Shown here in pieces: positions 20,311 through 42,885 of a DNA stretch of 64,000 nucleotides; position 1 is the stretch's first letter; every line of letters starts with the position of its first letter. Origin of the DNA: Candidatus Latescibacterota bacterium. GTDB taxonomy: Bacteria > Latescibacterota > UBA2968 > UBA8231. The stretch covers positions 864,001 to 928,000 of the forward strand of contig CBDCSU010000006.1 of NCBI GenBank assembly GCA_965221775.1, given 5' to 3'. The notes under the pieces are model-generated. The model ran no database searches and was not told where the DNA came from. It saw nothing but the letters and a program-made list of their open reading frames with translations. The translations under genes were made by a program, and so were the position numbers.

Positions 20311-20402
20311 GCCATGCCCCGCCCCCGGTTGCTCCCGATCGTCCACCCACCTATACTGAACATTTATTCACCTTCCGGCGCCCGCGCCAAAGACAGCCCC
20401 CC

Positions 20403-21488
20403 ATGCCCGACCCCACCGCCCCCCGGCCTCCCGCCAGGAGGGGCCGCGCCGCCGGCTTCAACACCCCCAACCGCTTCGAGCCCCTGCACCTGGAGCCCGA
20501 CCCGGCCGAGCCCGGGGAGGAGGGCTTCGAGGAGCGGGTCCCCACCCAGTACCTGGTCGACGCCAGCCGCTCGATCCTGGCCGAGAACGACTCGCCGGAC
20601 ATCGGCTTCCGCTTCAGCCTGAACCCCTACCGCGGCTGCGAGCACGGCTGCGTCTACTGCTATGCCCGGCCCAGCCACGAGTACCTGGGGTTCTCGGCGG
20701 GGCTCGACTTCGAGACGAAGATCCTGGTCAAGGAGCAGGCCCCGGAGCTGCTGGAGGCGGCCCTGCGCAAGAGGTCGTGGCAGCCCCAGGTGGTGGCCCT
20801 GTCGGGCAACACCGACTGCTACCAGCCGGTGGAGCGGCGGCTGCAACTCACGCGGCGGTGCCTGGAGGTGTTCCTCAAGTTCCGCAACCCCGTGAGCCTG
20901 ATCACCAAGAACCACCTGGTGACGCGAGACCTCGACATCCTGGGGGAAATGGCGGCCCTCGACCTGGTGCACGTGACCCTGTCGATCACCAGCCTCGACC
21001 GAAGGCTGACGGCGGCCATGGAGCCGCGCACCTCGCGGCCGGAGCGGCGCCTGCAGGCGCTGGACCAACTCTCCGGGGCGGGGGTGCCGGCGGGGGTCAA
21101 CGTGGCGCCCCTGATCCCGGGGCTCAACGACTCGGAGATCCCCGCCATCCTCGAGGCGGCGTCGGCGAGGGGGGCGCGCTGGGCCAACTACATCCTGGTG
21201 CGCCTGCCCGGGGCCGTGCGGCCCCTGTTCCTGGACTGGCTGCAGCGGAACTACCCCGACCGCGCGGACAAGGTGGTGCACCGGCTCGAGGCGGTGCGGG
21301 GGGGACAGCTCTCCGACGCGCGCTACGGCAGCCGCATGCGGGGCGAGGGGGAACTGGCGCGGCTGGTGGCCCGGTTCTTCGAGATCGCCAAGAGGCGGGC
21401 AGGACTGGGCGCCGGGGGGCACGAGTTGGCCGTGCACCGGTTCCGGCGCCAGGGGGAGGATCAGCTGGAGTTGTTCGGGCAGGGGTGA
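20403..21488 (+). CDS. PA0069/Rv2578c-family radical SAM protein
   Basis: NPYRGCEHGCVYCYARPSHEYLG and GLDFETKI. Confidence 0.9.
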   Translation: MPDPTAPRPPARRGRAAGFNTPNRFEPLHLEPDPAEPGEEGFEERVPTQYLVDASRSILAENDSPDIGFRFSLNPYRGCEHGCVYCYARPSHEYLGFSAGLDFETKILVKEQAPELLEAALRKRSWQPQVVALSGNTDCYQPVERRLQLTRRCLEVFLKFRNPVSLITKNHLVTRDLDILGEMAALDLVHVTLSITSLDRRLTAAMEPRTSRPERRLQALDQLSGAGVPAGVNVAPLIPGLNDSEIPAILEAASARGARWANYILVRLPGAVRPLFLDWLQRNYPDRADKVVHRLEAVRGGQLSDARYGSRMRGEGELARLVARFFEIAKRRAGLGAGGHELAVHRFRRQGEDQLELFGQG

Positions 21489-21785: not shown

Positions 21786-23153
21786 GTGGGGTCCTCCGGT
21801 CCCGCCGTCAGGCGCCGGCCCGAGAGGGCGGCAGACAGCCTTGCGCACGCAGGCCGCGCCCGTCCCCGCCCTTGGGCGCGAGGCATCATCGTTCTCAACG
21901 GCAACTTCGTCCCCGCATCGGCGGCCGGGCCCTTCAAGTACGGAGCGGTGGGCTATGCCCTAAGGGCGGCGGAGGCCCTGCGTCGCCCGGGCCTGCTGGC
22001 GGGGTTCCTCCTCTACCGGCGCGACGAGGGATTGGACCGGCCGCGGCTAGACCCGGTGCCGCTGCTCGGGTATCCGGCCCTCCAGCTCGGCTTTCACTTC
22101 GGCATGGACCGCCAGGTCCTGGGCGCCGCCCTGGAGGCCGCCCGCGCGCGCCTCGGCGGCGGACGGCTCTACTACCAGACCAACGTGCTGCTGCCCTTTC
22201 ACCCGCCCGGGCGGCCCCTCGTCGTCACCCACCACGCGCCCTTCGTCGACCACGTGGTCGAGGTCATGGGGCCGCGCCTGGCGGAGGAAGCCTTCGGCGC
22301 CGGGCGCGAGAAGCTGGAGCACCTGAGGGTCAACCAGCGCCTCGGACTGAAGCACCTGGCCCGCAGCCGCGGTGCCGCCGTCGAGATCTCGTCGATCCAG
22401 GCGGAGTACCTGCGCGCCCACGGCGTGGAGGGCCGGTTCATCCACAGGATCCACCCTCCCCTGGAGTCCGACGCGGTGAACGGCCTCTCCGGGGAGGGGG
22501 CGCGCCTGCGCAGCTTCATCGCCCGGGGCGGCCCCCGTCTGGTCCTGTGCACGGCCTGCTCGCGGCTGGACGCCTTCAAGAACGTCGAGCTCTTCGTGAG
22601 GGCCGCCCTCGGGCTGGCCAGGTCGGGCCTCGACCTGCGCGCGCTGGTCATCGGGGGCCCTCCCGATGATGCGCAGCGGCGGCGGCTGCAGGGGCTGGTG
22701 GACGCCGGCGTGGCGCACCGATTCCGCTTTTCCCCGAGGGTTTCGCGCGACGACCTGGCCCACCTGCTCGACGATCTGGCCGGCCGCGGCCTCTTCGTCT
22801 GTCCCTCGCGCTACGAGACTTGCGGCCTCACCCCCCTGGAGGCGGCGGCCCGCGGGGTCTGCACGCTGGTGGCGGACACGCCCGACAGGGTCGAGGCGGC
22901 CACGCTGGTCCCGCCCGGGCACCGGTTCACCCCGACGGCAGAGGGCCTCGCAGACGCCGTGCGCCGGCTCGCGGGCGACGGGCGGCTCCGGGTCGAGGGC
23001 CGAGTCCTCGACGAAGGCGCACGGGCCGGCAGCCTCGACTTCGACGCGCGCTTCATCGCCGCCTGGCAGCGTGCGACGGCGCCGCGGGGGCCCGGGTGCG
23101 CCGCGGCCGGCGACGGGCGGGAACTCTCCCGCGATCCGGCCCATCCGGCCTGA
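21786..23153 (+). CDS. Glycosyltransferase family 4 (divergent), in candidate RiPP cluster
   Basis: CSRLDAFKNV and PSRYETCGLTPLEAAARG (EX7E). Start uncertain. Confidence 0.75.
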   Translation: MGSSGPAVRRRPERAADSLAHAGRARPRPWARGIIVLNGNFVPASAAGPFKYGAVGYALRAAEALRRPGLLAGFLLYRRDEGLDRPRLDPVPLLGYPALQLGFHFGMDRQVLGAALEAARARLGGGRLYYQTNVLLPFHPPGRPLVVTHHAPFVDHVVEVMGPRLAEEAFGAGREKLEHLRVNQRLGLKHLARSRGAAVEISSIQAEYLRAHGVEGRFIHRIHPPLESDAVNGLSGEGARLRSFIARGGPRLVLCTACSRLDAFKNVELFVRAALGLARSGLDLRALVIGGPPDDAQRRRLQGLVDAGVAHRFRFSPRVSRDDLAHLLDDLAGRGLFVCPSRYETCGLTPLEAAARGVCTLVADTPDRVEAATLVPPGHRFTPTAEGLADAVRRLAGDGRLRVEGRVLDEGARAGSLDFDARFIAAWQRATAPRGPGCAAAGDGRELSRDPAHPA

Positions 23154-23161: not shown

Positions 23162-23797
23162 ATGCCCAAGGGCCGTCCGGTCCCGCTCGATCTCTCCTGC
23201 CACTTCAACAACGGCGGCATCGCCGCGGACGGGCGGCCGGCGGAGGGCGGTCTCGACGGCCTGGGCACCGCCTTCCGGGCGCAGAGCCTGCCATCCCCGG
23301 GTGGGACGATCCTCAGCCAGGGGACCCCCTTCCTCTTTCCGGGCGCAACCCCCGGCTCGGAGGACAACATCGCCTGCGAGGCCCAGGTGATCCCCCTGCC
23401 GCCAGGCCCCTGGGGTGCCCTCCACGTCCTGGGCATGTGCGATTGGCGGGCCTTCGAGGAACCCCTCCGGTTGCAGGCCTCCGACGGCACCTTGGCGGAG
23501 ACCCGCCTGGGACTGAGCGACGCGCCGCGCTACGGAGGGCTCCAGTACGGCGAAAGAGCGGCCCTCTCGTGTCCGCTCATGACTCCCGACACGTCGGTCC
23601 CTCTCTCTTCTCTCATCGGCTCCTCGCCGCCCGAAGCCGGATGCGAGACGGAGGAGACGCGTATCGAGGCCGGGATCTGGCACCAGGTGATCGACCTGCC
23701 CGGGCCCCGGCCCCTCACGGCCCTCGTGCTGCCCGACAACCCGTCCATGCACCTCTTCGCCCTCACCCTGGCCGCGGCGGACCCGGCCTCCCCGTGA
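23162..23797 (+). CDS. Hypothetical protein (possible beta-sandwich, carbohydrate-binding-like)
   Basis: LDLSCHFNNGGI...DNIACEAQVIPLP...LPDNPSMHLFALTL. Stop overlaps the start of the BtrH-like gene. Confidence 0.65.
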   Translation: MPKGRPVPLDLSCHFNNGGIAADGRPAEGGLDGLGTAFRAQSLPSPGGTILSQGTPFLFPGATPGSEDNIACEAQVIPLPPGPWGALHVLGMCDWRAFEEPLRLQASDGTLAETRLGLSDAPRYGGLQYGERAALSCPLMTPDTSVPLSSLIGSSPPEAGCETEETRIEAGIWHQVIDLPGPRPLTALVLPDNPSMHLFALTLAAADPASP

Positions 23798-24792
23798 GCA
23801 AGCGGATCCCCGGCATTCCCTTCTGCACCAACCGGCACTACAACTGCGTCTACGTGGTGCTCGACAGTCTGCTGCGCTTCCATGGCCACGAGCCCACCGT
23901 GGCATGCTTTTCCAACTGGGACTTCCTCTACCTCCGGGAGGAGGGACGCTTCGCCATCGACGGCCGCGCAATCCCCCTTCCAACGATGCTCGGCGCCTTC
24001 GGGATCGGCCTCTTCCACCGCGCCGACGCCGACGCCGACGCCGCGTGGAAGGCCGTGAAGTCGCGGCTCGACACCGGTACCCCGGTAGCCGTCAACGTCG
24101 ACGTCTTCGCCCTCGCCCGGGCCGGCCTCTATCCCCGCCTGCGTCACGCCGACCACCAGTACATCGCCGCCGGGTACGACAAGCCGGCGGGCACCGTCCA
24201 CCTGATCGATCCGTCGCCCTGGCAGCCCTCCGCGCGGGACATTCCCCTCGGCCTGTTCCTCGCCTGTTGGGACATGAGCGCCTTCTCCGGGGTGCGCGGC
24301 CGCTACAACTGGACCTGGCTGCGGGCGCCGGCGCACCCCCCTTCCCTGGGCCGCGGCCCCCTTCAGGCCCTCCTGCGCCGCAACCTGCGGAGCATGTCGG
24401 CCCCCGGCGGCCAGGCGGGCCTGGTGACGGGCCTGGAGGGGATCCGGCAGCTCGCCGCCGATGCCGGGGCCTGGGCGGGGCGGGAGGACGCCGACCTGCA
24501 GAGCCATCTGCGGCACTGCGCCCGGCTGCTGCTGGAGATCGCCGTGCTCCGCGAGGGGCACGGCCGCTTCCTGGGGCACGTGGGCCGGCTCTTCGACCAG
24601 CCCCGTCTGGCAGCTCTCGGCGCCGAGTTCGGGACGATCTCCCAGGGCTGGTTCGTGGTGAAGAGCCTGTGCCTCAAGGGGGCCCTCAAGGAGCCGCGGA
24701 GTCTCCTGCCCCGCATCCAGTCCCGGCTCGAGGACATCGAGGCCCGCGAAGGCAAGGCCCTGGCGGGACTGGCGGAGGCCGTGGAATGGTAG
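23794..24792 (+). CDS. BtrH N-terminal-domain protein (papain/C39-like fold)
   Basis: N-terminal Cys (YNC), then PVAVNVDVFAL...H..HQYIAAGYD...VHLIDP, giving a Cys-His-Asp arrangement. Confidence 0.75.
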   Translation: MSKRIPGIPFCTNRHYNCVYVVLDSLLRFHGHEPTVACFSNWDFLYLREEGRFAIDGRAIPLPTMLGAFGIGLFHRADADADAAWKAVKSRLDTGTPVAVNVDVFALARAGLYPRLRHADHQYIAAGYDKPAGTVHLIDPSPWQPSARDIPLGLFLACWDMSAFSGVRGRYNWTWLRAPAHPPSLGRGPLQALLRRNLRSMSAPGGQAGLVTGLEGIRQLAADAGAWAGREDADLQSHLRHCARLLLEIAVLREGHGRFLGHVGRLFDQPRLAALGAEFGTISQGWFVVKSLCLKGALKEPRSLLPRIQSRLEDIEAREGKALAGLAEAVEW

Positions 24793-24834: not shown

Positions 24835-24969
24835 GGGGTGTCACCTCCACGCCGCACCGGTGGCACCCGTCACTCACACCCGGCCGGGCGGCCGGCCCCG
24901 GGGGAGGCCGCAAGTCGTTGCCGCCCAGCACGCGGCGGGGCCGCGGGGGTGGTGGCACGGCGTTTGTAT
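24835..24969 (+). promoter_or_regulatory. Sigma54-type promoter 2 with IHF-like and activator-like sites
   Basis: TGGCACGGCGTTTGTAT at 24953-24969 (identical to promoter 1), CCGCAAGTCGTTGCC at 24908, GGGGTGTCAC at 24835. Confidence 0.65.
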
Positions 24970-25021
24970 GGGAGAAGGCCCAGGGCCACGGCCCACCCCC
25001 TCTCGCCGCGGAGACGCGCTG

Positions 25022-26212
25022 ATGAACATCGCCCTGATCGGTCAGGAGATGCCGCCCCTTTCCGGGGGCCTGGACCGCCACGTTCAGGACTGCGCCGCCG
25101 GACTGTCGCGGCGCGGCTGCGGGGTCCGCGTCCTCTCCATCGTCGGAGAGGGGCGGGGGCTGGCCGGCGACGAGATCCTGCTCCGACCCGGCGGCTCCCC
25201 CATCCAGGTGCACCGGACCTCGGTGCCGGGAGCGGACGACCCCGAGCCGAGGCTCACCGCCGGCGCCTGCCGCGGGCTCGCCCCGCACTGGTGCTCGCTG
25301 CTGGCCGACGCCGACGCGGTCTGCAGCTTCGGAGCCTCTACGGCCCTGGCCGGCGCCGAGATCCGCCGGCGGCTCGGACTCCCCTTCATCGCCGTCCTCC
25401 CCGATCTGCCCTCGCCGTCCGACGCCCGCCTCCGGGAGGTCCTGGGCTGCGGCGCCGATCTCTTCGTCGGCCTCTCGCGCTCCCAGTGCCGCCGCGCCGC
25501 AGAGCGCTTCGGCCTGCCCATGACCCCGGTCCCCCACGGCGTCGACACCGAGCTCTACCGGCCCGTGGCGGGGCCGGCCGCCGAGGCCGCCCTCGACCGC
25601 TACACCGTGCTGGGCGGCATTCCGGGCCCGCTTGTCACAAGCCCCGTGCGCATCGACCCGAGGCAGGGCCTCGAGCCGCTCATCGAGGCCTTCGAGCTGG
25701 TCGTCGCCCTGCGCCCCGACGCCACCCTGCTGATCGCGGGCCACGCCGGCTTCCGCCACCACCTTGTGGGCAACGCCTACGCCGACTACCTGTCCGCCCT
25801 GGTGCAGATGAAGGAGCTGGGCGCCAGGGTGCGCTTCGGCGGGGGCGTGTTCAAGGCCCGCCACATGCCCGCTCTCTACTCGCGCTCGCACCTGTGCGTC
25901 GTGGCCGGCGGGGGCGAGGACTTCGGCGCCGCGCCGGCCGAGTCCCTGGCCTGCGGGACACCGGTGGTGGCCCCCCGCGGCGAGGGCATGGCCGAGGTCC
26001 TGGGCCACGGCACCGGGGGCCTCCTGGTCGACGGCCGGGATCCGGTGAAGGTGGCGCGGGCCATCCTCTCCCTCCTCGACGACGACGCCCTGCGGAACCG
26101 ACTCGGCCGCGGCGGCCGCGAGCACGTGTGCCGCGCCTTCCCGCTGCGGGCGCAGGCCGACCGCTACCTCGAGCTGTTCTCCTCCATCACCGCCGCCCGC
26201 GCCGCCGCCTGA
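25022..26212 (+). CDS. Glycosyltransferase family 4, in candidate RiPP cluster
   Basis: MNIALIG..PPLSGGL, PHGVDTELY, EDFGAAPAESLACGTPVV. Confidence 0.85.
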   Translation: MNIALIGQEMPPLSGGLDRHVQDCAAGLSRRGCGVRVLSIVGEGRGLAGDEILLRPGGSPIQVHRTSVPGADDPEPRLTAGACRGLAPHWCSLLADADAVCSFGASTALAGAEIRRRLGLPFIAVLPDLPSPSDARLREVLGCGADLFVGLSRSQCRRAAERFGLPMTPVPHGVDTELYRPVAGPAAEAALDRYTVLGGIPGPLVTSPVRIDPRQGLEPLIEAFELVVALRPDATLLIAGHAGFRHHLVGNAYADYLSALVQMKELGARVRFGGGVFKARHMPALYSRSHLCVVAGGGEDFGAAPAESLACGTPVVAPRGEGMAEVLGHGTGGLLVDGRDPVKVARAILSLLDDDALRNRLGRGGREHVCRAFPLRAQADRYLELFSSITAARAAA

Positions 26213-26226: not shown

Positions 26227-27654
26227 ATGCCCCAAGTGCAGCCGGAGTCCCTGGAATCCATCTGCCTCCCCGACGACGGCACGGCCCTGCTCACGCCGCC
26301 GCCGGGGAGCCTGCTCGAATCGGCCGCGGGGGAATCCCCCTCGATCCGGCAGCGGCTCGAGGACGCCCACCGCGAGCTCGCCGGCGGCGATGCCCGGGAG
26401 GCGGCGGGTTCCTTCCAGGCGGTGCAGGCCCGGTGGCCGCATCCCTTGCCTGCCATGGCCGAAGGCGTCGCCCTCGCCCTGGCGTCGGACTGGCGCGGCG
26501 CCCTGACCCAGCTCTCCGGGAGCGCCGGCCAGCTCGAGGAGCGGGGCCTGCCCGACGCGGCCCTCGGCTGCCGGCTGAACCTGGGGTACGTCCACTACGT
26601 CCTGGGCGACCCCGCCGGCGCCGAGTCCACCCTCGACCAGGCGGTGCAGGCCGCGAGCCTCGCCGGCAAGACCCGGCTGCTGGCCACCGGACTCCACGAG
26701 AAGGCCGCCCTCCGGCTGCGCCACGGCCGTTACGGGGACGCCCGCGAGGAGTGCGAGAGAGCGATGGCGGAATGCCCCGGGGAGGGGGCGGCGCTGGCCC
26801 AGGTCATGTGCACGCAGGCGATTGCCTCCCAGGCCCTCGGAGAACTCCCCCGGGCCGAGGAGGAGTTCAGGGCCTCCCTGTCGCTGGCCTCGGGGGTCTC
26901 GCCCTTCGCGGAGCTGCGGGCCTCCGTCAACCTGGCCGTGCTCTGCCAGCTCACGGCGCGCGGCACGGAAGCCCTGGAGCTGCTCGCCGCGGCCACGGCC
27001 GTCGCCGAGCGCCAGCGGGACGCACGGTTCCTCGCCAAGATGCGGTTCCTGCGGGCCCTGATGGACTTCGGGGAGACCGGGGAGGAGGCCCTGCCGGCCG
27101 CTCTCGCCGAGGTCGAGCAGATGCGCGGCCTCCACTACCGCAAGGGAGAGCTGGACGCCATCCCCATGCTGGTCCCGTGTCTGCTGGAGTGCGGCAAGAA
27201 CCTCGAAGCGGAGACCCTGGCCGCCGCGGCGATGACCACCGCGCAGGAGTGCGGGTACCTGGCCGGGCTCCTCGAGGCGATGTCGTGCGCCGCCCTGGTC
27301 CATCTCGCCGGCGCCGACGCCGAGCGCGCGAAGGAGGCGGCCTGCGGCGTCCTGGAGAAGAGCGAGGCGGCGCAGCTGCCGGTCATCGGCATCAAGGCCC
27401 GCCGGATCCTGTCGGACGTGTCGCTGCAGGAGGGCGAGCCGGAGAGAGCCCTGGAGCACCTTCGGCGGGCGGAGGGAGCCGCCGCGGAGATCGGGGCCCA
27501 GGTCCTGCAGTGCCACCTCATGGAGGCGGCAGCCGCCCTCCTGGAGATCTGCGGCAGGATCGAGGAGGCCGAGGCGGAGAGAGCGGCTGCCCAGGCGCGG
27601 GGCCTCTCCATCGGACTGGGGAGCGCTGCCGCAGTCGGGAGCAGCATCGAATGA
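26227..27654 (+). CDS. TPR/MalT-TPR-like helical repeat protein
   Basis: Ala/Leu-rich helical repeats (LNLGYVHYVLGD, VNLAVLC). Lies immediately upstream of the precursor array. Confidence 0.7.
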   Translation: MPQVQPESLESICLPDDGTALLTPPPGSLLESAAGESPSIRQRLEDAHRELAGGDAREAAGSFQAVQARWPHPLPAMAEGVALALASDWRGALTQLSGSAGQLEERGLPDAALGCRLNLGYVHYVLGDPAGAESTLDQAVQAASLAGKTRLLATGLHEKAALRLRHGRYGDAREECERAMAECPGEGAALAQVMCTQAIASQALGELPRAEEEFRASLSLASGVSPFAELRASVNLAVLCQLTARGTEALELLAAATAVAERQRDARFLAKMRFLRALMDFGETGEEALPAALAEVEQMRGLHYRKGELDAIPMLVPCLLECGKNLEAETLAAAAMTTAQECGYLAGLLEAMSCAALVHLAGADAERAKEAACGVLEKSEAAQLPVIGIKARRILSDVSLQEGEPERALEHLRRAEGAAAEIGAQVLQCHLMEAAAALLEICGRIEEAEAERAAAQARGLSIGLGSAAAVGSSIE

Positions 27655-27703
27655 ACACGGGGGCATCTACGTGGGCGCTGAACTCACCGAAAGGAGATCC
27701 ATC

Positions 27704-27904
27704 ATGAACAGACTCATCAAGCCGCAGAAGCAGTCCTACCAGGGCGAAGACGCCCAGGTGCTCGCCTACTCCGACATCTGCGAGATGGCAGCCGTCCTCT
27801 GCACGGGCGTGACGATCGGCTTGCTGGGCTTCGGCGTTGCGCCGGCCGTGGTCGTGGCGGGCGTGTCGTGCGCCATCCTGGTCCTGATCTGCGGACTCAT
27901 CTGA
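27704..27904 (+). CDS. Putative RiPP/bacteriocin precursor peptide 1 (66 aa)
   Basis: RBS AAGGAG. Leader MNRLIKPQKQSYQGEDAQVLAY, core with C-x6-C...C-x6-C. Confidence 0.85.
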   Translation: MNRLIKPQKQSYQGEDAQVLAYSDICEMAAVLCTGVTIGLLGFGVAPAVVVAGVSCAILVLICGLI

Positions 27905-27968
27905 GTCCTGTACCACAAGGGGGCATCTACGCGGGCGCTACATTCACATTCACCGAAGGAGATCCATC

Positions 27969-28196
27969 ATGAACAGACTCATCAAACCGCAGAAGCAGTC
28001 CTACGAGGGCGAAGACGCCCAGGTCCTGGCCTACTCCCGTCTCAGCGAGATGGCATGGGCCGCCAGCGTCTGCGCGGGCGCCATAGGCGCTGCGGGCTTG
28101 TTGGGCCTCGCCGTGCCGCCTCTCCTGGCGGCGGTGGGCGTGTCGTGTTTCATCCACTACGTCGTCTACTCGGCGGGCAGCAGGGGTTACCTCTGA
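27969..28196 (+). CDS. Putative RiPP/bacteriocin precursor peptide 2 (75 aa)
   Basis: RBS AAGGAG. Leader MNRLIKPQKQSYEGEDAQVLAY, hydrophobic core with 2 Cys. Confidence 0.85.
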   Translation: MNRLIKPQKQSYEGEDAQVLAYSRLSEMAWAASVCAGAIGAAGLLGLAVPPLLAAVGVSCFIHYVVYSAGSRGYL

Positions 28197-28331
28197 TCCT
28201 TCACCCCTGCATTGGCCCCACCCAATCGCGGCGTCGATAGGGCGCCGCAGTACTCACTGAGCCATCAAACCCCTTAGCGCCCCGTAGATGCCCCCATGGC
28301 TGGCGCCACATTTCCCGGAAGGAGATCCACC

Positions 28332-28547
28332 ATGAACAAGCTCGTCAAGCCGCAGAAGCAGTCCTACACCGGCGAGGACTCCCAGGTCCTTGCCTATTCC
28401 GATACCTGCGAGATGACATGGGCCACCGCCATCTGCACGGCCCGGCCCTGGTTTGGCCTCGGCCGGAGTCCTTTCATCGCCGCGACGGGAGTGACGTGCC
28501 TCCTTTTCTCCACAGTCTGTTCGGCGGTGCGCAACGCTTACATCTGA
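28332..28547 (+). CDS. Putative RiPP/bacteriocin precursor peptide 3 (71 aa)
   Basis: RBS AAGGAG. Leader MNKLVKPQKQSYTGEDSQVLAY, core with C-x8-C...C-x6-C. Confidence 0.85.
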   Translation: MNKLVKPQKQSYTGEDSQVLAYSDTCEMTWATAICTARPWFGLGRSPFIAATGVTCLLFSTVCSAVRNAYI

Positions 28548-28624
28548 TCCTGTCACCCCATCAAACCCCTTCAGCGCCCAGGGGCATCTACGAGGGCGCT
28601 ACACTCACCGGAAGGAGATCCGTC

Positions 28625-28846
28625 ATGGACAAACTCATCAAACCCCAGAAGCAGTGCTACACCGGCGAGGACGCCCAGGTCCTGGCCTATGCCCGTGACT
28701 GCGAGATTGCCTGGGGCGTCAGGACCTGCGTTGGCTTCACAACCATTGGATACGTGGTGACCGGGTCGCCTTGGGGTGCCGTGGCCGGTGCGCTCTTGGC
28801 CCTCGCTTACATCGTCTCCATGGCGTCGTACAACGGTCACATCTGA
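28625..28846 (+). CDS. Putative RiPP/bacteriocin precursor peptide 4 (73 aa)
   Basis: RBS AAGGAG. Leader MDKLIKPQKQCYTGEDAQVLAY, core with C-x8-C followed by a hydrophobic hairpin. Confidence 0.85.
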   Translation: MDKLIKPQKQCYTGEDAQVLAYARDCEIAWGVRTCVGFTTIGYVVTGSPWGAVAGALLALAYIVSMASYNGHI

Positions 28847-28945
28847 CCTTCCCCCCGGGGATTGCACCGCGTCTTGCTTGAGCGTCGACAAGACGTGTAG
28901 TACTCACTGACCGACCAAACCCTCAGCGCCCCGTAGATGCCCCCC

Positions 28946-30658
28946 ATGATCACAACACTCCTGTCGTCCCTGCCCCGGATTTCGGGAGCGTTCTCCTACG
29001 CGGTCCGGGTCGAAGCCCGCACCATGCGCCACGAGGCCCGGTCGAAGCCGGGGGACTTCTGGCCGGCCGCCGTCATCCACGCGGCGGCCGGAGGGTCCTT
29101 CCTGCTGGTTCTCTGGATCTCCCTCCACACCCTCAAGGGGATCCTCGGCGACGGGGACCCCGAGCTGTCCCTGGCCCTGGCCTCCGCGTTTCTCGCCTCC
29201 TACGCCTTCCTGTGGTTCTGCATCGCCATCGGCTTCGGCGGCGAGATCGTACCCATCTCCCGCCTGGAGAAGCTCGCCGTGCTTCGATGGACCCCGGGGC
29301 AGGCCTACGCCGCGGGCCAGGTGATGGCCGCGTTCCAACCCCTGCACCTGTTCTTCTCCCTGGCCTTCCTGACCACCGGGCTCACGCTCTTCCCGCCGGC
29401 CGGCGCCGCGTCCGTCCTGTTCACGTGCCTGGCCACGGGCGTGGCCGCGTTCGGCATGGTCGCCTGGATCCAGGGCACGCGCTGCGCCATCGAGCTGGTG
29501 TCGTGGAAGGGCGCGCTGTGGACACTCGCCCGAGTCCTGGGGGGCGGGGCGTTCCTGGCTCTCACCCTCCTCCTCGCCTGGTCCGTGGTGGGCGGCGACT
29601 GGATCGAGCGGCTTCGCGGGCTTCCGGGGTCCTGGTTCGAGATGGCGCCCACCAGCCAGTTGGCCCGCGCCTGTCAGCTGGCCGGGGAAGGAGGCCTCGC
29701 GGACCTGCCGGCGCCCCTGGCCCTGCTCGGCGCCTTCGCGGCGGCCGGCTTTCTCTTCGGCTGGCGCCTGACCCGCCGGCGGGTCTTCCTCGCGGGCGGG
29801 TCCCGCCTGGCCCCGGCCGGCCCGTGCGACCGGATCCCGGGCCTGGCCCGGTGGCTCGGGCGGGTCCTGCCGCCGCCCTATCCGAACCTGGTGGCCCGCG
29901 AGGTGCTGTCCACCCTCCGCTGGAGACAGATCTGGATACAGGCCGGGCTCGCCGCGGTATTTGCATGCTGCACGGCCATCCTTCCCGCCCTCGCCCTCTT
30001 TGCCGGCAAGGGGCGCGGCGACTTTCCCTACACCTGGCAGAACGTAATAGGGATCGCCTTGCTCGCCTTCTTCCAGAGCGGGACCGCCGCCAACCTGTTT
30101 TCGAGAGAGGGCCGGGGCGCCTGCGAGTACCTGCTCCTGCCCCTCGACGAGCGGCAGATCCTGGCGAGCAAGAACATCGCCTTCGCGGTGATCCAGTACG
30201 GGCTTACGGCCTTCTGCGCCCCGGCCCTCCTCTTCGTGTTCTGGTTCCACGATCTCCTCGGCGCCGGGTTCCAGGTCCTCGGGGCCGTGGTCCTGGCCCC
30301 CGTGGCGAGCGTCATCGCCGGCAACTATCTCTCGATCCTCAACCCCGCCAGGCAGCCCGCATCGAAGAAGGACCCGAGGGGCCATGTCCCGCGGAACAGC
30401 GGCCTCCTGCAGGCACTGGTGACGACTCTCCTCATCGCCGCGGCGGCCCTGTACTTCTCGATCGATTCCGAGTACCTGCGCCACGCGGCGGCGGCCTTCG
30501 GGATTCCCTCGATCGACTCCGGGTACCTGCGCTACGCGGCGGCCGCCTTCGGGGGCCTGGCCGCCGTGGCGCTGCCGGCGGGGTACGTCGTCGCCCTGCG
30601 CCACCAGACCCGGCTGCTCCGGCAACGCCGCCTCGCCGTGGCGGAAGTGTTCTCGTAA
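28946..30658 (+). CDS. ABC-2 type multi-TM permease
   Basis: Many TM helices and the EGRG..YLLLPLDERQILASKN motif. Followed by an ABC ATPase. Confidence 0.75.
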   Translation: MITTLLSSLPRISGAFSYAVRVEARTMRHEARSKPGDFWPAAVIHAAAGGSFLLVLWISLHTLKGILGDGDPELSLALASAFLASYAFLWFCIAIGFGGEIVPISRLEKLAVLRWTPGQAYAAGQVMAAFQPLHLFFSLAFLTTGLTLFPPAGAASVLFTCLATGVAAFGMVAWIQGTRCAIELVSWKGALWTLARVLGGGAFLALTLLLAWSVVGGDWIERLRGLPGSWFEMAPTSQLARACQLAGEGGLADLPAPLALLGAFAAAGFLFGWRLTRRRVFLAGGSRLAPAGPCDRIPGLARWLGRVLPPPYPNLVAREVLSTLRWRQIWIQAGLAAVFACCTAILPALALFAGKGRGDFPYTWQNVIGIALLAFFQSGTAANLFSREGRGACEYLLLPLDERQILASKNIAFAVIQYGLTAFCAPALLFVFWFHDLLGAGFQVLGAVVLAPVASVIAGNYLSILNPARQPASKKDPRGHVPRNSGLLQALVTTLLIAAAALYFSIDSEYLRHAAAAFGIPSIDSGYLRYAAAAFGGLAAVALPAGYVVALRHQTRLLRQRRLAVAEVFS

Positions 30659-30677: not shown

Positions 30678-31445
30678 ATGGAACCGACCGTGGAGCTGCA
30701 AGACCTGACCAAGCGCTACCGGTCCACCGTGGCCGTCCGTTCCCTCTCCCTGGGGGTGGAGCCGGGGGCGATCCTCGGTCTGGTGGGGCCGAACGGCGCC
30801 GGCAAGACGACGCTGCTCAACATGATGGCCGGGCTCCTGGAGCCGAGCGAGGGCACGGTGCGCCTCTTCGGACGCACCTACGCCGAGGCCGGCAACGACA
30901 TCCGCGCCCTGACCGGCGTCATGCGCGACGACCCGGGGCTCTACGAGAGCCTCACCGGGTCCGAGCACCTGAGCTTCACCGGCTCGGCGTACGGCCTCGA
31001 TCCCGCGGAGGTGGCGGAGCGGTCGCGCGAGGTGCTGGAGTTCATGGATCTCGAAGGCGCGGCCGGCGAGACCGCCGCCACCTACTCGGCGGGCATGAGG
31101 AAGAAGCTGGCCCTCGCCTGCATCCTCCTGCACCAGCCCCGCCTGGTCCTGCTCGACGAGCCCTTCGCCACCCTCGACCCGGAAGCCGCCCTCCAGGTGG
31201 AGGAGCTGCTCCGCAGGCTGTCGGCCGGCGGCGCCACCGTGGTCCTCAGCTCCCACGTCCTCGACCGCGTCGACCGGCTCTGCTCCGAGCTGGCCTTCAT
31301 CAACAAGGGAGAGCTGATCCTGCGGGGCCCGCCCGAGGAGCTGCGCGCCCGCGGCGCCGAGGGCAAGGAGGCCGGGAGTCTCGAGGAGCTGTACATGGAT
31401 CTGGTCGCCCCGGAGGGGGACCGGCGGAGGCTCTCGTGGTTGTGA
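30678..31445 (+). CDS. ABC transporter ATP-binding protein
   Basis: GPNGAGKTT, YSAGM, LLDEP. Confidence 0.93.
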   Translation: MEPTVELQDLTKRYRSTVAVRSLSLGVEPGAILGLVGPNGAGKTTLLNMMAGLLEPSEGTVRLFGRTYAEAGNDIRALTGVMRDDPGLYESLTGSEHLSFTGSAYGLDPAEVAERSREVLEFMDLEGAAGETAATYSAGMRKKLALACILLHQPRLVLLDEPFATLDPEAALQVEELLRRLSAGGATVVLSSHVLDRVDRLCSELAFINKGELILRGPPEELRARGAEGKEAGSLEELYMDLVAPEGDRRRLSWL

Positions 31446-33184
31446 GCCGGCCCGGCTGGCTCTCCCTCCGGCGCAGGAAACCGGCGGGGGGGTCCCTCCT
31501 CCTCTTTCTCTGGGGCTTCCTCAGGCCCTACCGGCTGCGCGCCGCCGAGGCCCTCGCCGCCATGGTCCTGGCGGCGGCCCTCACCGTGCCCCTGCCGCTG
31601 GTGACGATCTACCTCGTGGACGAGGTCTTCGCCGCCGGCTCGCGGCCCACGCTCCACGCCGTCTGCGCCGGGATCCTCGCCGTCTCGGTCCTCGGCACGC
31701 TCCTGAGCCTGCTGCAGGGCTACCTGCTCACCGTCTTCGCCCGGCGCGTGTTCTTCGACATGGAGATCACCCTCACCCGGCGCCTGCTGGCGCAGTCCGT
31801 CGGCTACTTCCGCAAGGCCGGCTCCGGCTACCTCGCCACCCGGGCCAGCGACGACGTGCGGCAGCTGGGGGCTCTCATGGCCGGGACCTGGATCCAGGCG
31901 ATGAACTCGGCCTTCGTCCTCGTCGCCGGCGCCGTGGTGATGATCGCCCTGAGCCCCGGCCTGGCCGCGATCCTGCTGGCCTTCGTCCCCGTCCTCGCCG
32001 TGGCCAGCGTGCTCGTGGGCCGGAGGGTCCACGACCTCAACGCCGAGGTCCAGGAGCGCCGGGGAGAGACCCAGGCGGTGCGCATCGAGTCCCTGGAGAA
32101 CATCACCGTCGTCAAGGCCTTCGGCGCCGAGCGCCGGCAGCTCCGGCGGATCGCCGGCAGGCTGCGCCGCGAGCTCGACGCCGGCCTGGCCCGCGATGTC
32201 CGGGGGCTGCTGCTCTCGGGCGTCCAGGGCCTGGTGCACGCCGGCGGCTATCTCGTCCTGCTGTGGGTGGGAGGGCTCCAGGTGATGGACGGCCAGCTCT
32301 CCCTCGGGCAGCTCCTGGCCCTCAACTCCCTCCTCGCCTTCGTGCTCTCGCCGACGATGCAGCTGTCCAGCGTCTACCTGGGCGTCAAGATGGCCCTCGG
32401 GATCCTGCGGCGGGTGCGCGACTTCGGCGGGGCCCCGGTCCCCGGGGAGCGCGCCGGCAAGCCGCCCATCGACATCGGTCCGGGGCGCGTGGAGTTCGAC
32501 AAGGTCTCCTTCGGGCTGTCCGGAGGGGCAACCGTCCTGCACGACGTCTCCGCCACTTTCCCGGCCGGGCGGATCACCGCGGTGGTGGGCGGCACGGGAA
32601 TGGGCAAGAGCACCCTCGTGCGGCTCCTGCTGCAGCTGGAGACGCCGTCGCGGGGATCGATCCGGATCGACGGCCGCGACGCGGGCGAGCACGACCCCCG
32701 GAGCATCCGCGCCCACATCGGCTACGTCGAGCAGGAGGTGCACCTGTTCTCGGCGACGGTCCGCGAGAACATCCTCTACGGCCGCCCCCGGGCCACGGCC
32801 GAGGACCTGGCCTGGGCGACGGCGATCTCCGACTGCGACGGGTTCCTGTCGCGGTTCCCCGACGGGCTGGACACGCGCATCGGCGCCAACGGCGTCGAGC
32901 TGTCGCGGGGCCAGAAGCAGCGCGTCTGCCTGGCCCGGGCCATGGTCCGCAGGCCGAGGATCTTAGTCCTCGACGAGACCACCGCCTCCCTGGACCCCGA
33001 GACCGAGCAGACCGTGATCCGCGCCTTGAGGCAGGCCGGCGAGGGCCGCACCACCGTCTACGTGAGCCATCGCCTCGCCTCCCTGGACTTCGCCGACCGG
33101 GTCGTGGTCATGAAGGGCGGGCGGGTGACGAGCGAAGGCCCTCTGCAGGAGGGGGTCTCGTTGGACCGGGCGGCGGCCGCCTGA
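31442..33184 (+). CDS. ABC exporter (fused TMD and NBD, no C39 peptidase domain)
   Basis: TM domain followed by GGTGMGKST, LSRGQKQR, LVLDE. Confidence 0.9.
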   Translation: MSRPGWLSLRRRKPAGGSLLLFLWGFLRPYRLRAAEALAAMVLAAALTVPLPLVTIYLVDEVFAAGSRPTLHAVCAGILAVSVLGTLLSLLQGYLLTVFARRVFFDMEITLTRRLLAQSVGYFRKAGSGYLATRASDDVRQLGALMAGTWIQAMNSAFVLVAGAVVMIALSPGLAAILLAFVPVLAVASVLVGRRVHDLNAEVQERRGETQAVRIESLENITVVKAFGAERRQLRRIAGRLRRELDAGLARDVRGLLLSGVQGLVHAGGYLVLLWVGGLQVMDGQLSLGQLLALNSLLAFVLSPTMQLSSVYLGVKMALGILRRVRDFGGAPVPGERAGKPPIDIGPGRVEFDKVSFGLSGGATVLHDVSATFPAGRITAVVGGTGMGKSTLVRLLLQLETPSRGSIRIDGRDAGEHDPRSIRAHIGYVEQEVHLFSATVRENILYGRPRATAEDLAWATAISDCDGFLSRFPDGLDTRIGANGVELSRGQKQRVCLARAMVRRPRILVLDETTASLDPETEQTVIRALRQAGEGRTTVYVSHRLASLDFADRVVVMKGGRVTSEGPLQEGVSLDRAAAA

Positions 33185-33194: not shown

Positions 33195-33638
33195 ATGCGG
33201 ATTCCCTCGCGCATAGAGTGGACCGGCGGGGCCGTCCTGATCGGCGCCGCCGCGTGCTCCCTGCTCCTGCTCTTCGGGCTGGTCCTCGTCGACGTGGACC
33301 GGGGGATCCTGGTCTCGGGGGAGGTCACGAAGGCGGACGGCGGCTGGCGGCTCGAAGGCCCGGTGGCGAGGCGGAGTCTCGGACTCCTGGGCGACGCCCG
33401 CTACGTCTTCGCCGCCAGGGGGGGCCGCCGCGTCCTGCTGGGGCAGGTGCGGTCCGTGGGCGCGCGGTTCCGGCAAAGCGAGGAGGGAATCCTCGCAGCC
33501 GTGGAATTCGAGTCCACGGCGGGCGGCAAGGGCCTCCCCCGTCCCCTGAGAGAGGGCCCCGCGAGCCTCTTCGTGGCCACACGGCCTCCAGGGCCCTTGC
33601 TGCTCGCGCTTCTCGAGAAGGTAAGCCCCGCCAGGTAG
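33195..33638 (+). CDS. Hypothetical membrane-anchored protein (possible truncated HlyD-like accessory)
   Basis: Single N-terminal TM, in operon directly after the ABC exporter. Confidence 0.5.
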   Translation: MRIPSRIEWTGGAVLIGAAACSLLLLFGLVLVDVDRGILVSGEVTKADGGWRLEGPVARRSLGLLGDARYVFAARGGRRVLLGQVRSVGARFRQSEEGILAAVEFESTAGGKGLPRPLREGPASLFVATRPPGPLLLALLEKVSPAR

Positions 33639-33741
33639 AGGCCCGGCGGCAGCGGGCGGACGGACGTTCCCGGAGAGTCCGGGAACTTCCAGCGGGGAGT
33701 CTTGCGTCCGGATGGACCTGTCAAACCAGAGAGGTGATGTC

Positions 33742-34512
33742 ATGAGAAGATCGGCAGAGAGCGGCACGGAGCAGGAAGGAGCGCGCCTGGTGGAACGTGT
33801 GCGCCTCCTGGCGGCGTCGCCGCGGCAGGCCTTCGCCTCGATCCTGGAGGGCCGCCCCTGGGTGGACGTATTCGTGGTGCTGAGCCTGGGGAGCGCCCTC
33901 GCCTCGTGCCTCTCCCTCTACCTGGCGGGAGACCAGCTGGAGCTGGTGCCCGCCGGCCTGCTCACCGAGTCCCAGGAGAGTGTATTCGCCCTCCTGAGAT
34001 TCGCGGCGATCGTCCTGTTTGCCTTCCCGGCCACCCTGGTCGGCCTCCTGGCGCCGGCGTTCTTCCTCTGGCTGCTGGTGCAGCTCTTCGAGGAATGGAG
34101 CGACTTCCGGGCGATCCTGGCCGTCGTCGCCCACGCCAGCCTGGTGCTGCTGCTCTCCCAGGCGGCCGACACCCTCCTCCTGGCCGGCCGACTGCAGGGG
34201 GCCGAGGCGGTGAGCCTCTCGGAGATGGGCGCCCAGTTCGATCTGGGTCTGCTCTTCGACCTCGGCGGGGCCCCGGTGCTCGCCGTCCTCCTGTCCTACA
34301 CCAGCCCCTTCAAGATCTGGTTCTACGGCCTCCTCGTCGTGGGCATCGGCCGCGCCTGCCGGCTGACCTGGCCGCGCAGCGCCGGCGTCGTGGCCCTGCT
34401 CCTGGTCGCCGGCGTGGTGCTGAGAGTGAGCTTCACCTTCCTGGCGGACACGGCCTCCGAGTCCCTCGCCGCCGACAACGACTGCCCCGCCTGCGAACTG
34501 CTGCCCCGCTGA
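33742..34512 (+). CDS. Yip1-family membrane protein
   Basis: SPRQAFASI..RPW, FRAILAVVAHA, PFKIW..GLLVVG. Confidence 0.8.
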   Translation: MRRSAESGTEQEGARLVERVRLLAASPRQAFASILEGRPWVDVFVVLSLGSALASCLSLYLAGDQLELVPAGLLTESQESVFALLRFAAIVLFAFPATLVGLLAPAFFLWLLVQLFEEWSDFRAILAVVAHASLVLLLSQAADTLLLAGRLQGAEAVSLSEMGAQFDLGLLFDLGGAPVLAVLLSYTSPFKIWFYGLLVVGIGRACRLTWPRSAGVVALLLVAGVVLRVSFTFLADTASESLAADNDCPACELLPR

Positions 34513-39534: not shown

Positions 39535-39547
39535 GGGGATTACATAC

Positions 39548-39576
39548 TTGACTGCGCAAGACCCGTTTCGTATCTT
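39548..39576 (+). promoter_or_regulatory. Sigma70-type promoter in IS left end
   Basis: TTGACT-N17-TATCTT pointing inward. Confidence 0.6.
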
Positions 39577-39582
39577 GGAGGT

Positions 39583-39895: not shown

Positions 39896-39905
39896 AGGAT
39901 TGGAA

Positions 39906-42884: not shown

Positions 42885-42885
42885 C

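Follow-up and report, generated by a model that had tools for sequence, protein, structure and literature searches.

The precursor array

Four small open reading frames lie in tandem on the forward strand between positions 27704 and 28846 of the window (the whole 64,000-nucleotide stretch of DNA that was analysed), exactly the span given in the original prediction. They are named here pep1 (27704–27904, 66 aa), pep2 (27969–28196, 75 aa), pep3 (28332–28547, 71 aa) and pep4 (28625–28846, 73 aa), and an invariant ribosome-binding site, AAGGAGAT, sits 6–7 nt ahead of each ATG. In a protein alignment the four products share a 22-aa leader, M(N/D)(R/K)L(I/V)KPQKQ(S/C)YxGED(A/S)QVLAY, followed by cores of 44, 53, 49 and 51 aa in pep1, pep2, pep3 and pep4, respectively. 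Pairwise identity is 82% across residues 1–22, 51% in alignment columns 23–30 and 31% beyond; conservation continues past residue 22 to about residue 30, and E27 is invariant. The tandem array with a constant leader and divergent cores that had been described from the sequence is thereby borne out, as it is by the leader-versus-core dN/dS comparison that the same prediction had asked for. Pooled over eight cross-genome pairs, pN/pS comes to 0.23 in the leader, where pS is 0.241, and to 1.26 in the core, where pS is 0.159; the sites behind these values are few, the distances are uncorrected and the pairs are not independent of one another. The values indicate that the leader is conserved at the protein level and does not owe its uniformity to gene conversion. 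With a core ratio close to 1, relaxed constraint is an alternative to diversifying selection.

Judged from their sequences, the four reading frames are genuine genes rather than chance ORFs, because a profile search returned 38 protein clusters (E 6e-36 to 1.8e-11) that all have the same architecture. Members of the family were found within a single genus, in 4 of its 10 genomes, and 158 genomes from elsewhere in the phylum gave none. Pfam and NCBIfam offer no assignment (the four peptides match no NCBIfam model at E<=10), a profile search found no PDB sequence at E<=10, and a search for language-model look-alikes returned none. An RNA-library contig spans pep2 at 27970–28241 with zero differences, and the 5' part of pep3 is spanned at 28271–28432; this coverage is weak evidence for the array. 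The RNA-library contigs leave the flanks of the peptide genes uncovered, which carries no evidential weight. The stretch is present in sponge and marine metagenome runs, and the host is a sponge-associated bacterium.

The cores have a membrane-like hydropathy, with GRAVY from +0.6 to +2.05, the highest value being that of pep1. Core 1 carries its cysteines as C4-x6-C11...C34-x6-C41 and core 3 as C4-x8-C13...C34-x6-C41, and cores 2 and 4 have two each, all at the positions originally described; pep4 retains Cys1 and Cys2 only in its core and has one more Cys in its leader. The expectation that Cys spacing would be kept in homologues held in part. Homologues of type 1 keep (C-x6-C)2 (8 of the 38 sequences), and the remaining members have x8/x6 or about x8/x10 spacing, two Cys or one Cys. 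Of the 38 sequences, 24 have both Cys1 and Cys4, 13 have neither and one has only one of the two; the paired loss may go back to one event within a single clade.

AlphaFold2 (AF2) models precursor 1 as two helices, residues 15–43 and 46–65 (pLDDT 80.8), with Cys26/Cys63 and Cys33/Cys56 placed symmetrically around the turn. A helical hairpin had been proposed from the sequence, and it is supported here as a structure prediction; the central turn that had been noted in all cores corresponds to P47, which is invariant in the precursors. The first helix passes unbroken through the proposed cleavage site at residue 22. A Foldseek search with the precursor model gave nothing at E<=0.001 and only weak matches to membrane hairpins, which would be equally compatible with an ordinary small membrane protein.

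The precursor genes are interspersed with copies of a 20-nt motif, GGGGCATCTACGNGGGCGCT. Forward copies lie at 27660–27679, 27920–27939 and 28581–28600; reverse-strand copies lie at 28276–28294 (19 nt, without the N) and at 28925–28943, the latter abutting the start codon of the downstream membrane protein gene. In a covariation test of the inverted-repeat stem, 94% of cells pair and 17 of 22 pairs never vary, with a covariation score no better than that of shuffles (59 of 500 reach the same score). These data fit an RNA stem and a conserved DNA motif alike and cannot separate the two. Between 26000 and 30000, a scan for promoters and terminators returned a single weak promoter-like site, and terminators were not detected. 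The repeats were also considered as integron attC sites or as part of an invertible cassette, and both readings were rejected: no recombinase gene was noted among the scanned cluster genes, all cassettes have the same orientation in the four genomes, and inversion joints are absent from the DNA contigs examined.

The surrounding gene cluster

All cluster genes described in this section are on the forward strand. The upstream part begins with GT4a (21786–23153; Pfam Glycos_transf_1, 2.7e-13), a GT4-family glycosyltransferase and candidate tailoring enzyme, which is syntenic in genomes G160 and G167 and frameshifted in the peptide-less G165. The next gene (23162–23797) encodes a 211-aa protein with no Pfam or NCBIfam match whose AF2 model (pLDDT 75) has an AziU2-like fold; at the top of its Foldseek matches stand chains of ~200 aa from the AziU3/U2 complex (7wuw_A/B and 8gs1_A/C; E 1.5e-11 to 8.7e-11, TM 0.68–0.76). 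Overlapping it by 4 nt is a gene for a papain-like, AziU3-like protein (23794–24792; Pfam BtrH_N 1.2e-12, DUF4872 7.4e-9), in which C18, H121 and D139 are invariant in four homologues and whose profile matches the AziU3 chains 7wuw_C and 8gs1_B at E 6–8e-9. A second GT4-family glycosyltransferase, GT4b (24860–26212; Pfam Glycos_transf_1 2.3e-26, Glyco_transf_4 6e-9), is truncated near residue 338 in G165. The last gene before the array encodes a 475-aa TPR protein (26227–27654; Pfam TPR_2, TPR_12, TPR_MalT) and is found in exactly those 4 of the 10 genus genomes that have the peptides.

Downstream, transport genes predominate. A 573-aa polytopic membrane protein (28937–30658) with no family match has 13 hydrophobic windows, some overlapping, which correspond to ~11–13 segments in a hydropathy scan; its gene is syntenic, and it is the likely permease partner of the following ABC ATPase (30678–31445; Pfam ABC_tran 2.7e-28) in a candidate immunity pump. 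This ATPase is of the DrrA/lantibiotic-protection type (NCBIfam drrA 2e-59 and galliderm_ABC 1.1e-43, both below cutoff). Then come a full ABC exporter of 582 aa (31436–33184; ABC_membrane plus ABC_tran) without a C39 peptidase domain, a 147-aa protein with one N-terminal membrane segment (33195–33638) and a Yip1/YknW-like membrane protein (33712–34512; Pfam Yip1 5e-9; NCBIfam YknW_fam 6.1e-8, below cutoff). Beyond the fusion gene discussed below lie an HlyD-type periplasmic adaptor (36440–37384), a first MacB/FtsX-type permease (37381–38604), a second such permease and a MacB-type ABC ATPase (45103–45816). Permease 2 is interrupted by a low-GC insert of ~5.1 kb bearing an IS1595 transposase gene at 39906–40913, so that its N-terminal part lies at 38611–39585 and a C-terminal fragment at 44754–45119; in G160, G165 and G167 the gene is uninterrupted. 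Whole-cluster synteny inside the genus is expected from relatedness alone.

A protease fusion with a carrier protein

At 34512–36437 the cluster encodes, on the forward strand, a fusion of an S8 subtilisin-type protease with a P-loop domain resembling DUF1611/TIGR04066 (Pfam Peptidase_S8 3.2e-22, DUF1611 1.9e-14), which we propose as the leader peptidase. Its best curated match is NCBIfam QhpE (NF049966; 5.5e-36, 124 bits, below the cutoff of 165). Residues 275–587 match TIGR04066 (1.3e-30, 106.7 bits, below the cutoff of 200), and Pfam DUF1611 is above its own cutoff. D20, H60 and S204 are invariant among 21 homologues; no signal peptide was found, the catalytic Asp lying already at residue 20. 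The DUF1611 family includes the N-acetyltransferase DgcN, and no DgcN model matched the fusion at E<=0.01.

The family partner of the fusion is an 88-aa acyl carrier protein with a DS phosphopantetheine motif (45813–46079, forward strand; Pfam PP-binding 1.8e-10), which among the matches listed at E<=0.01 hits generic ACP models only and not TIGR04069. Of 16 fusion loci, 14 have a homologue of it, and in 12 of these the homologue starts no more than ~60 nt from the end of the fusion gene; in the window it is displaced, 9.4 kb from the fusion gene. A homologue of the C39-less ABC exporter stands beside the fusion gene in 13 of the 16. A tblastn search across the same 16 loci found homologues of the GT4, TPR, Yip1 and 573-aa proteins accompanying the fusion in this genus only, and locus L033 has an unrelated GT4 gene 2.4 kb downstream.

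Homologues of the fusion enzyme form at least 432 protein clusters at E<=1e-10. Of the 80 loci retained from a metagenome scan for fusion loci, a single one (L107) was full length; the other 79 had S8 alone or were partial. The full-text literature searched on TIGR04065, TIGR04066, DUF1611, CLI_3235, TIGR04068 and TIGR04069 does not describe the S8-DUF1611 fusion or its leader, and that searched on DUF4872/BtrH and DgcN contains nothing about peptide maturation.

A leader signature shared across phyla

A small ORF with the leader signature L-x-K-P ... V/L-x-x-Y occurs at 10 of the 16 distinct fusion loci, in several phyla. The search pattern, M-x(1-6)-L-x-K-P-x(6-20)-Y, was drawn up after the array at locus L064 had been seen; among 13 full-length fusion loci (226 kb) it matched 12 times, in 8 of the loci, whereas 8 partial loci gave no match and 136 S8-only loci (1.48 Mb) gave four, three of them within long proteins. 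Two more loci of the same genus match, which brings the total to 10 of 16, and since L107 and L188 share one peptide the number of independent leader loci is below 10. All the matching ORFs lie upstream of the fusion gene and on the same strand. At the other 6 of the 16 loci no leader-type ORF was found in the locus DNA examined, and a looser pattern gave nothing convincing in five pattern-negative loci. A leader HMM built from alignment columns 1–30 and run against all ORFs of 75 genome loci found only the same-genus locus L029, which indicates that in other lineages the leader has diverged beyond the reach of that profile.

The cores behind the signature are unrelated, being acidic, Cys-rich or endowed with CxxCH, and range from 12 to 125 aa. 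A shared leader ahead of unrelated cores supports leader removal after Tyr22. The candidate cleavage site, V-L-A-Y|S, has hydrophobic residues at P4 and P1, and such residues suit subtilisins. Cleavage after AY by the S8 enzyme, as first proposed for the window alone, thus gains comparative support from a signature that ends in Tyr at S8-DUF1611 loci of other phyla. The signature of the system is complete in the window, with an intact Asp-His-Ser triad, the carrier protein, the C39-less exporter and precursors with an L-x-K-P...Y leader.

Comparison with known systems

Two known systems resemble the cluster in its proteolytic and transport components. QhpE is reported to be a cytoplasmic protease that removes the 28-residue leader of QhpC ahead of ABC export (PMC7876137). 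The fusion is likewise a cytoplasmic subtilisin-like protease without a signal peptide, encoded beside an efflux-type ABC transporter. Its putative substrates differ, however, being four hairpin peptides rather than an enzyme subunit of quinohemoprotein amine dehydrogenase; nothing in the Qhp system corresponds to the DUF1611 fusion or to the carrier protein, and no qhpA, qhpB, qhpC, qhpD or qhpG gene was seen among the scanned cluster genes.

The second is the CLI_3235/CcpM system of Firmicutes, for which NCBIfam has models of the precursor (TIGR04065), the radical SAM enzyme CcpM (TIGR04068), TIGR04066 and an ACP-related protein (TIGR04069). A CLI_3235-family precursor in a cluster with TIGR04066, ACP-related, S8 and ABC genes is reported to give an active bacteriocin, SacP23 of Paenibacillus polymyxa, with a 19-aa leader (PMC10731318). 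In common with this system the window has an S8 protease, an ABC exporter and precursors, often in tandem, that bear a short leader (22 aa here). It also encodes a DUF1611 domain that resembles TIGR04066 at a score below cutoff, and a small carrier protein with generic ACP models alone among its listed matches. Unlike it, the window has the S8 protease and the TIGR04066-like domain as one protein; its precursors lack a TIGR04065 match and are hydrophobic hairpins with 1–4 Cys, not Cys-rich; it adds GT4, TPR and AziU2/U3-like genes; and its host is a diderm labelled Gemmatimonadota/Latescibacterota. The radical SAM/SPASM maturase CcpM (TIGR04068) is absent from the window cluster, where the sole radical SAM gene nearby (19989–21488) belongs to the PA0069 family (477 bits, cutoff 360). 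Relatives at loci L064 and L042 possess rSAM/SPASM maturases.

AziU3/AziU2 form the aziridine synthase of azinomycin biosynthesis, and BtrH, AsbE and CtaG are papain-like transacylases (PMC12865890, PMC12559475). The adjoining genes in the window resemble AziU2 by fold and AziU3 by sequence; the AziU3-like product retains Cys, His and Asp, and a carrier protein is encoded in the same cluster. Identity is ~25%, however, and the setting is a ribosomal-peptide cluster as opposed to a non-ribosomal or aminoglycoside pathway.

Proposed pathway and alternative explanations

We consider it reasonably probable that pep1–pep4 are precursors for a leader-guided maturation and export system that yields membrane-active hairpin peptides. 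Residues 1–22 would act as a hydrophilic leader, recognised in the cytoplasm by the S8 half of the fusion and cut after Tyr22; such a cut would follow the QhpE/QhpC precedent of cleavage before ABC export. The DUF1611 half would partner the dedicated acyl carrier protein. The freed core of 44–53 aa would be a very hydrophobic helix-turn-helix hairpin stapled by up to two nested Cys pairs, Cys1–Cys4 outer and Cys2–Cys3 inner. Pep4, which has Cys1 and Cys2 and neither Cys3 nor Cys4, does not fit this scheme. Tailoring may fall to the two GT4 enzymes, the TPR protein, the AziU2/AziU3-like proteins or the carrier protein; the C39-less ABC exporter and the HlyD/MacB-type pump may carry the product out, and the additional ABC-2-like pump and the YknW-like protein may shield the producer. 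The membranes of competing bacteria would be its most likely target, which would make it a bacteriocin; the two extra efflux/immunity-type transporter sets in the operon count for this reading.

The same membrane-like hydropathy would be expected if the four products were uncleaved two-helix inner-membrane proteins, for example transporter accessory or immunity subunits whose N-terminus serves as a cytoplasmic interaction tail. The weak fold matches to membrane hairpins, the modelled helix that continues through residue 22, the conservation to about residue 30 and the numerous transporter genes nearby all agree with such proteins. We nevertheless regard this as unlikely. In other phyla the same N-terminal signature heads soluble, acidic or Cys-rich cores of 12–125 aa, and its occurrence before unrelated cores beside S8-DUF1611 indicates that the N-terminus behaves as a portable module. 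Moreover, a core pN/pS of ~1.26 is unusual for a structural subunit, and four divergent tandem paralogues better fit a toxin or bacteriocin repertoire.

The cores had originally been called glycocin-like. The glycocins sublancin 168 and glycocin F are helix-turn-helix peptides with two Cys pairs in nested disulfides, and glycosyltransferase genes lie near theirs. Typical of glycocins are also a dedicated GT2-family (SunS-type) S/O-glycosyltransferase, a double-glycine leader that an ABC transporter with a C39 peptidase domain removes, and a sugar on a Ser, Thr or Cys of the loop or C-terminus. The peptides of the window resemble them in Cys pairs placed for nested disulfides, in the (C-x6-C)2 of type 1, in a predicted helix-turn-helix fold and in two GT4 genes and a TPR gene directly upstream, in a tightly packed operon (gaps of 9–68 nt, one 4-nt overlap). 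On this basis the two GT4 enzymes might add S- or O-linked sugars to hairpins perhaps presented by the TPR protein, and the products might act as sublancin and glycocin F do. The genome G165 is in keeping with this, in that it lacks the peptides and the TPR gene and has GT4a frameshifted and GT4b truncated with most other cluster genes intact, but it is a single case and may show collateral damage of one insertion. Against a glycocin pathway, Pfam and NCBIfam scans of the 23 cluster genes found GT4-type enzymes only and no GT2 (SunS-type) enzyme; the leader ends Q-V-L-A-Y, with neither a Gly-Gly nor a Gly-Ala site; the exporter has no C39 domain; and the scans of these 23 genes turned up no thiol-disulfide oxidoreductase. 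The x6/x6 spacing is confined to one of the four types and 8 of the 38 sequences, with Cys spacing and number variable elsewhere, and the 38-sequence alignment has no loop Ser, Thr or Cys kept across the four types. The cores are strongly hydrophobic, there is no solved-structure sequence match at E<=10 and no significant fold match, and across the 16 loci the GT4 homologues stand beside S8-DUF1611 in this genus only. The glycocin-like label is therefore not supported, and we judge glycocin-type peptides distinctly unlikely here; maturation is most likely through a widespread, unstudied protease-carrier-protein system rather than the glycocin pathway. Separately, an AhpC/Redoxin gene lies at 14779–15879, ~6 kb upstream of GT4a, with unrelated genes between.

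Processed and exported peptides might instead serve an end other than antibiosis, for example in signalling or in interaction with the sponge host, or be carrier-dependent acylated peptides that do not mainly kill. Such roles would agree with the sponge and marine metagenome runs and with the very different cores (to ~125 aa, some with CxxCH) that the S8-DUF1611/ACP system serves, which mark it as a general maturation and export route and not a bacteriocin-specific one, but we think them very unlikely, as the two immunity-type transporter sets (the lantibiotic-protection-like ATPase, and the YknW-like protein with HlyD/FtsX) and the fast-evolving hydrophobic cores are typical for toxic peptides.

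Leader-guided maturation of pep1–pep4 might also be one instance of something broader, namely a cross-phylum class of ribosomally made peptides and small proteins defined by the L-x-K-P...(V/L)-x-x-Y leader and matured by one bifunctional enzyme. The S8 half would remove the leader, and the DUF1611 half with the carrier protein would modify the core, for example by acylating its new N-terminus; the genus would additionally have recruited the AziU2/AziU3-like pair and the two GT4 enzymes, and a long-range RNA stem of ~20 bp would close around each precursor cistron and set its processing or stability. Taken jointly, with its modification, recruitment and RNA-stem parts, this broader proposal is doubtful.

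Implications

The peptide family is unannotated, in that the searches run here gave no family, solved-structure or language-model match, and the combination of S8-DUF1611, carrier protein and ABC exporter is common in metagenomes and nearly absent from the literature searched. Membrane-spanning hairpins would be an unusual product for such a pathway, as compared with Cys-rich knots. Should the broader proposal hold, the products of the window would be membrane hairpins stapled by disulfides, bearing acyl groups, sugars or both, and evolving under diversifying selection in a sponge symbiont. The shared leader gives a handle for mining the substrates of the system across phyla, and it also offers a defined in vitro test with one enzyme, one carrier protein and one leader.

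Peptide genes and their distribution

Four short ORFs on the + strand lie exactly where the original prediction had placed a tandem array, namely pep1 (27704-27904, 66 aa), pep2 (27969-28196, 75 aa), pep3 (28332-28547, 71 aa) and pep4 (28625-28846, 73 aa). An invariant ribosome-binding site, AAGGAGAT, stands ahead of each, and all fall within a single long run of + strand genes (~13 kb to 39.6 kb by GC3 frame analysis) in a window of ~72% G+C. Their alignment gives the same leader consensus and Cys positions as had been claimed, with pairwise identity of 82% over residues 1-22, 51% over alignment columns 23-30 and 31% over the rest.

Searched with a profile, 5.8 billion proteins yielded a family of 38 clusters (E 6e-36 to 1.8e-11), each of 66-75 aa, which sort into the same four length types as pep1-pep4. 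The family is found in 4 of the 168 genomes of the phylum (4/10 in the window's genus, 0/158 elsewhere), and the window's own genome holds these four copies and no others. Genomes carrying it are labelled Latescibacterota or Gemmatimonadaceae in public records. The array stretch is present in sponge and marine metagenome runs, and in one sponge run the entire 3-kb stretch is spanned by a single contig (95-99% likeness). One metatranscriptome study has two runs with one short contig each, one identical across pep2 (27970-28241) and one with 2 differences across the pep2/pep3 junction and 5' pep3 (28271-28432); strand, ends and level cannot be read from either.

The peptides match no Pfam family at the curated cut-off, no NCBIfam model even at E<=10, no PDB sequence at E<=10 (profile) and no Foldseek structure at E<=0.001 (model), where the weak rows are membrane hairpins. 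The sole Pfam match listed, pep2 to UbiA (E 0.0014), was taken as chance at 18.4 bits under a cutoff of 34.2. The top score in a language-model look-alike search was 0.79.

Core structure, cysteines and selection

The cores are strongly hydrophobic (GRAVY +2.05, +1.19, +0.61 and +0.80 for pep1-pep4), and the leaders range from -0.6 to -0.9. The helical hairpin originally proposed is supported by an AlphaFold2 model from the 38-sequence family alignment, which has a helix at 15-43, a turn at an invariant Pro and a helix at 46-65 (mean pLDDT 80.8). In pep1 the cysteines flank the turn symmetrically, Cys33 and Cys56 at 11 residues and Cys26 and Cys63 at 18, an arrangement that would place them for nested pairing. 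All four Cys occur in 24/38 sequences, Cys2 and Cys3 only in 12, Cys3 only in one, and Cys1 and Cys2 only in one (the window's pep4); Cys1 and Cys4 are thus kept or lost jointly in 37/38. The 12 double losses may represent a single clade.

At the protein level purifying selection acts on the leader, and core evolution is relaxed or diversifying. Across eight cross-genome pairs of equal length and identity >=60%, pooled pS and pN were 0.241 and 0.056 in the leader (ratio 0.23) and 0.159 and 0.201 in the core (ratio 1.26), on few sites, uncorrected distances and non-independent pairs, and with leaders off the script pattern left out (including the third peptides of two other genomes of the genus, G160 and G166). 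This leader-core comparison had been proposed with the original prediction; the core ratio of 1.26 fits either mode.

The fusion enzyme and its leader signature

The proposed leader peptidase is an S8 protease fused to a DUF1611/TIGR04066-like domain (34512-36437, +). At least 432 relatives were found at E<=1e-10, both domains are present in all 120 of those listed, and Asp20, His60 and Ser204 are invariant among 21 aligned members. The protein begins right at the catalytic Asp region and so has no signal peptide. Sixteen distinct full-length fusion loci were compared (12 genome contigs, 1 metagenome, 3 from the window's genus), L189 being excluded as the same contig as L037. A carrier-protein homologue is found in 14/16, starting within ~60 nt of the fusion end in 12, and an ABC exporter in 13/16.

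In one Firmicute locus (L064), three small Cys-rich ORFs stand in tandem directly upstream of the fusion gene. The locus (7689-11797) runs from a radical SAM/SPASM maturase through this precursor trio (34-40 aa, leader MKVELKKPAMETMND(N/G)WLDLY) to the fusion, an order that ties the fusion family to sactipeptide- or ranthipeptide-like systems. A leader pattern devised after this array was seen, M-x(1-6)-L-x-K-P-x(6-20)-Y, matched 12 times in 8 of 13 full-length fusion loci (226 kb), not at all in 8 partial fusion loci (37 kb) and four times in 4 of 136 S8-only loci (1.48 Mb), three of these within long proteins. With two further same-genus loci it is matched in 10/16 fusion loci, two of which (L107 and L188) share the same peptide. 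All the matches in fusion loci open short ORFs upstream of the fusion enzyme and on its strand. They align over a common L-x-K-P, followed 8-14 residues on by (V/L/I)-x-x-Y, and V-L-A-Y-S is common to L032, L035 and the window. The sequences after the Tyr are unrelated, being acidic, Cys-rich, 115-125-aa CxxCH cores or the window hairpins. This shared signature ahead of unrelated cores is the chief ground for reading residues 1-22 as a portable leader with its boundary at the Tyr, and it lends comparative support to the originally proposed cleavage after AY. Subtilisins favour hydrophobic P4 and P1 residues, and both are hydrophobic at the putative site V-L-A-Y|S. The top curated match of the fusion, below cutoff, is the leader protease QhpE; QhpE/QhpF is a published precedent in which an S8 protease removes the leader in the cytoplasm before ABC export (PMC7876137).

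Precursors of 129-133 aa (L187 9096-9488, L188 8940-9368, L037 2829-3227, L107 7581-7967) belong to a second S8-DUF1611/ACP/ABC system that occurs in the window's genus too. Their leader is of the same type (…L-x-K-P…V-x-(V/M)-Y-H), and their core carries a conserved CxxCH of haem-binding type. In a KSB1 genome (L040, 65-8293), fusion and carrier-protein genes are flanked by amino-sugar genes (epimerase/dehydratase, DegT aminotransferase), a radical SAM/SPASM gene and two genes for GNAT acetyltransferases; this locus yielded no leader-type ORF.

Gene cluster and lineage-specific genes

Upstream of the peptides lie GT4a (21786-23153), a 211-aa protein, a BtrH_N/DUF4872 protein, GT4b (24860-26212) and a TPR protein (26227-27654). 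After them come a 573-aa polytopic membrane protein, an ABC ATPase, a full ABC exporter without a C39 domain, a 147-aa protein, a Yip1/YknW-like protein, the fusion enzyme, HlyD and two MacB/FtsX permeases. The second permease gene is split (38611-39585 and 44754-45119), and 44754-46079 holds its C-terminal fragment, a MacB-type ATPase and an 88-aa acyl carrier protein; this stretch is uninterrupted, with the permease gene intact, in three other genomes of the genus (G160, G165, G167). The splitting insert (~39600-44750, ~5.1 kb) is low in G+C (0.56) and carries an IS1595-family transposase gene (39906-40913). An upstream radical SAM gene (19989-21488) matches the PA0069 family above cutoff and was not counted as a system member.

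The 211-aa protein (model pLDDT 75) resembles ~200-aa chains of AziU3/U2 complexes (E 1.5e-11 to 8.7e-11, TM 0.68-0.76, 25-26% identity), and the BtrH-like protein, with invariant Cys18, His121 and Asp139, matches AziU3 by profile (E 6-8e-9); the overlapping pair (23162-24792) is thus AziU2/AziU3-like. PMC12559475 describes AziU3/U2 as an aziridine synthase, and according to PMC12865890 BtrH, AsbE and CtaG are papain-like transacylases that use a Cys/His/Asp triad and carrier-protein-bound donors. Homologues of the AziU2/AziU3-like pair adjoin the fusion gene in few other loci only: both types in L041 and the partial fusion locus L030, the AziU3-like in L036 and the AziU2-like in L186.

The window's genus is the only one in which homologues of GT4b, the TPR protein, the Yip1 protein and the 573-aa membrane protein adjoin the fusion gene. 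The genomes with the TPR protein are the same four that have the peptides, a joint loss that is trivial because the genes are adjacent. G165 (L104 and L105, G165:C1:3446000-3485999) keeps most of the cluster, with a ~14-kb lower-GC insert in place of the GT4b end, the TPR gene and all peptide genes; its GT4a is frameshifted and its GT4b truncated.

Inverted repeats around the peptide genes

A 19-20-nt motif has five copies in the 5.36-Mb genome, all at the peptide locus, forward at 27660-27679, 27920-27939 and 28581-28600 (+) and reverse at 28276-28294 and 28925-28943 (-). As inverted repeats they bracket peptide genes, with a forward copy ahead of the ribosome-binding site (~45 nt before each ATG in the four array genomes) and a reverse one downstream of the stop codon. 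Bracketing is conserved in 4/4 array genomes, with four pairs in G160, three in G166 and two each in G167 and the window, the last two also having decayed junctions. In G165 only the final reverse copy is left, at the membrane-protein start, and the motif also occurs in L027, L013 and L025. Shuffled sequences give -15 to -22 kcal/mol, where the predicted duplex (20-23 bp, one-base bulge) comes out at -41 to -52, and the copies also pair in the minimum-energy fold of the 1.3-kb RNA. The motif may form a long-range RNA stem that acts in processing or stability, or it may be a site for DNA binding; the covariation count, with 17/22 stem pairs invariant, favours neither.

Relation to known systems

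Glycocin membership fails on every testable feature, and the expected Cys spacing is not conserved in homologues, x6/x6 occurring in type 1 only (8/38 sequences). Among described systems, the CLI_3235/CcpM set of NCBIfam models comes closest; in the literature searched it appears in two papers only, as a subject of genome mining in one (PMC4573289) and of heterologous expression in the other (PMC10731318). Unlike that system, the window has its S8 and TIGR04066-like parts fused, lacks a radical SAM maturase, has precursors without a TIGR04065 match and a new core type, and carries added genes in its cluster.
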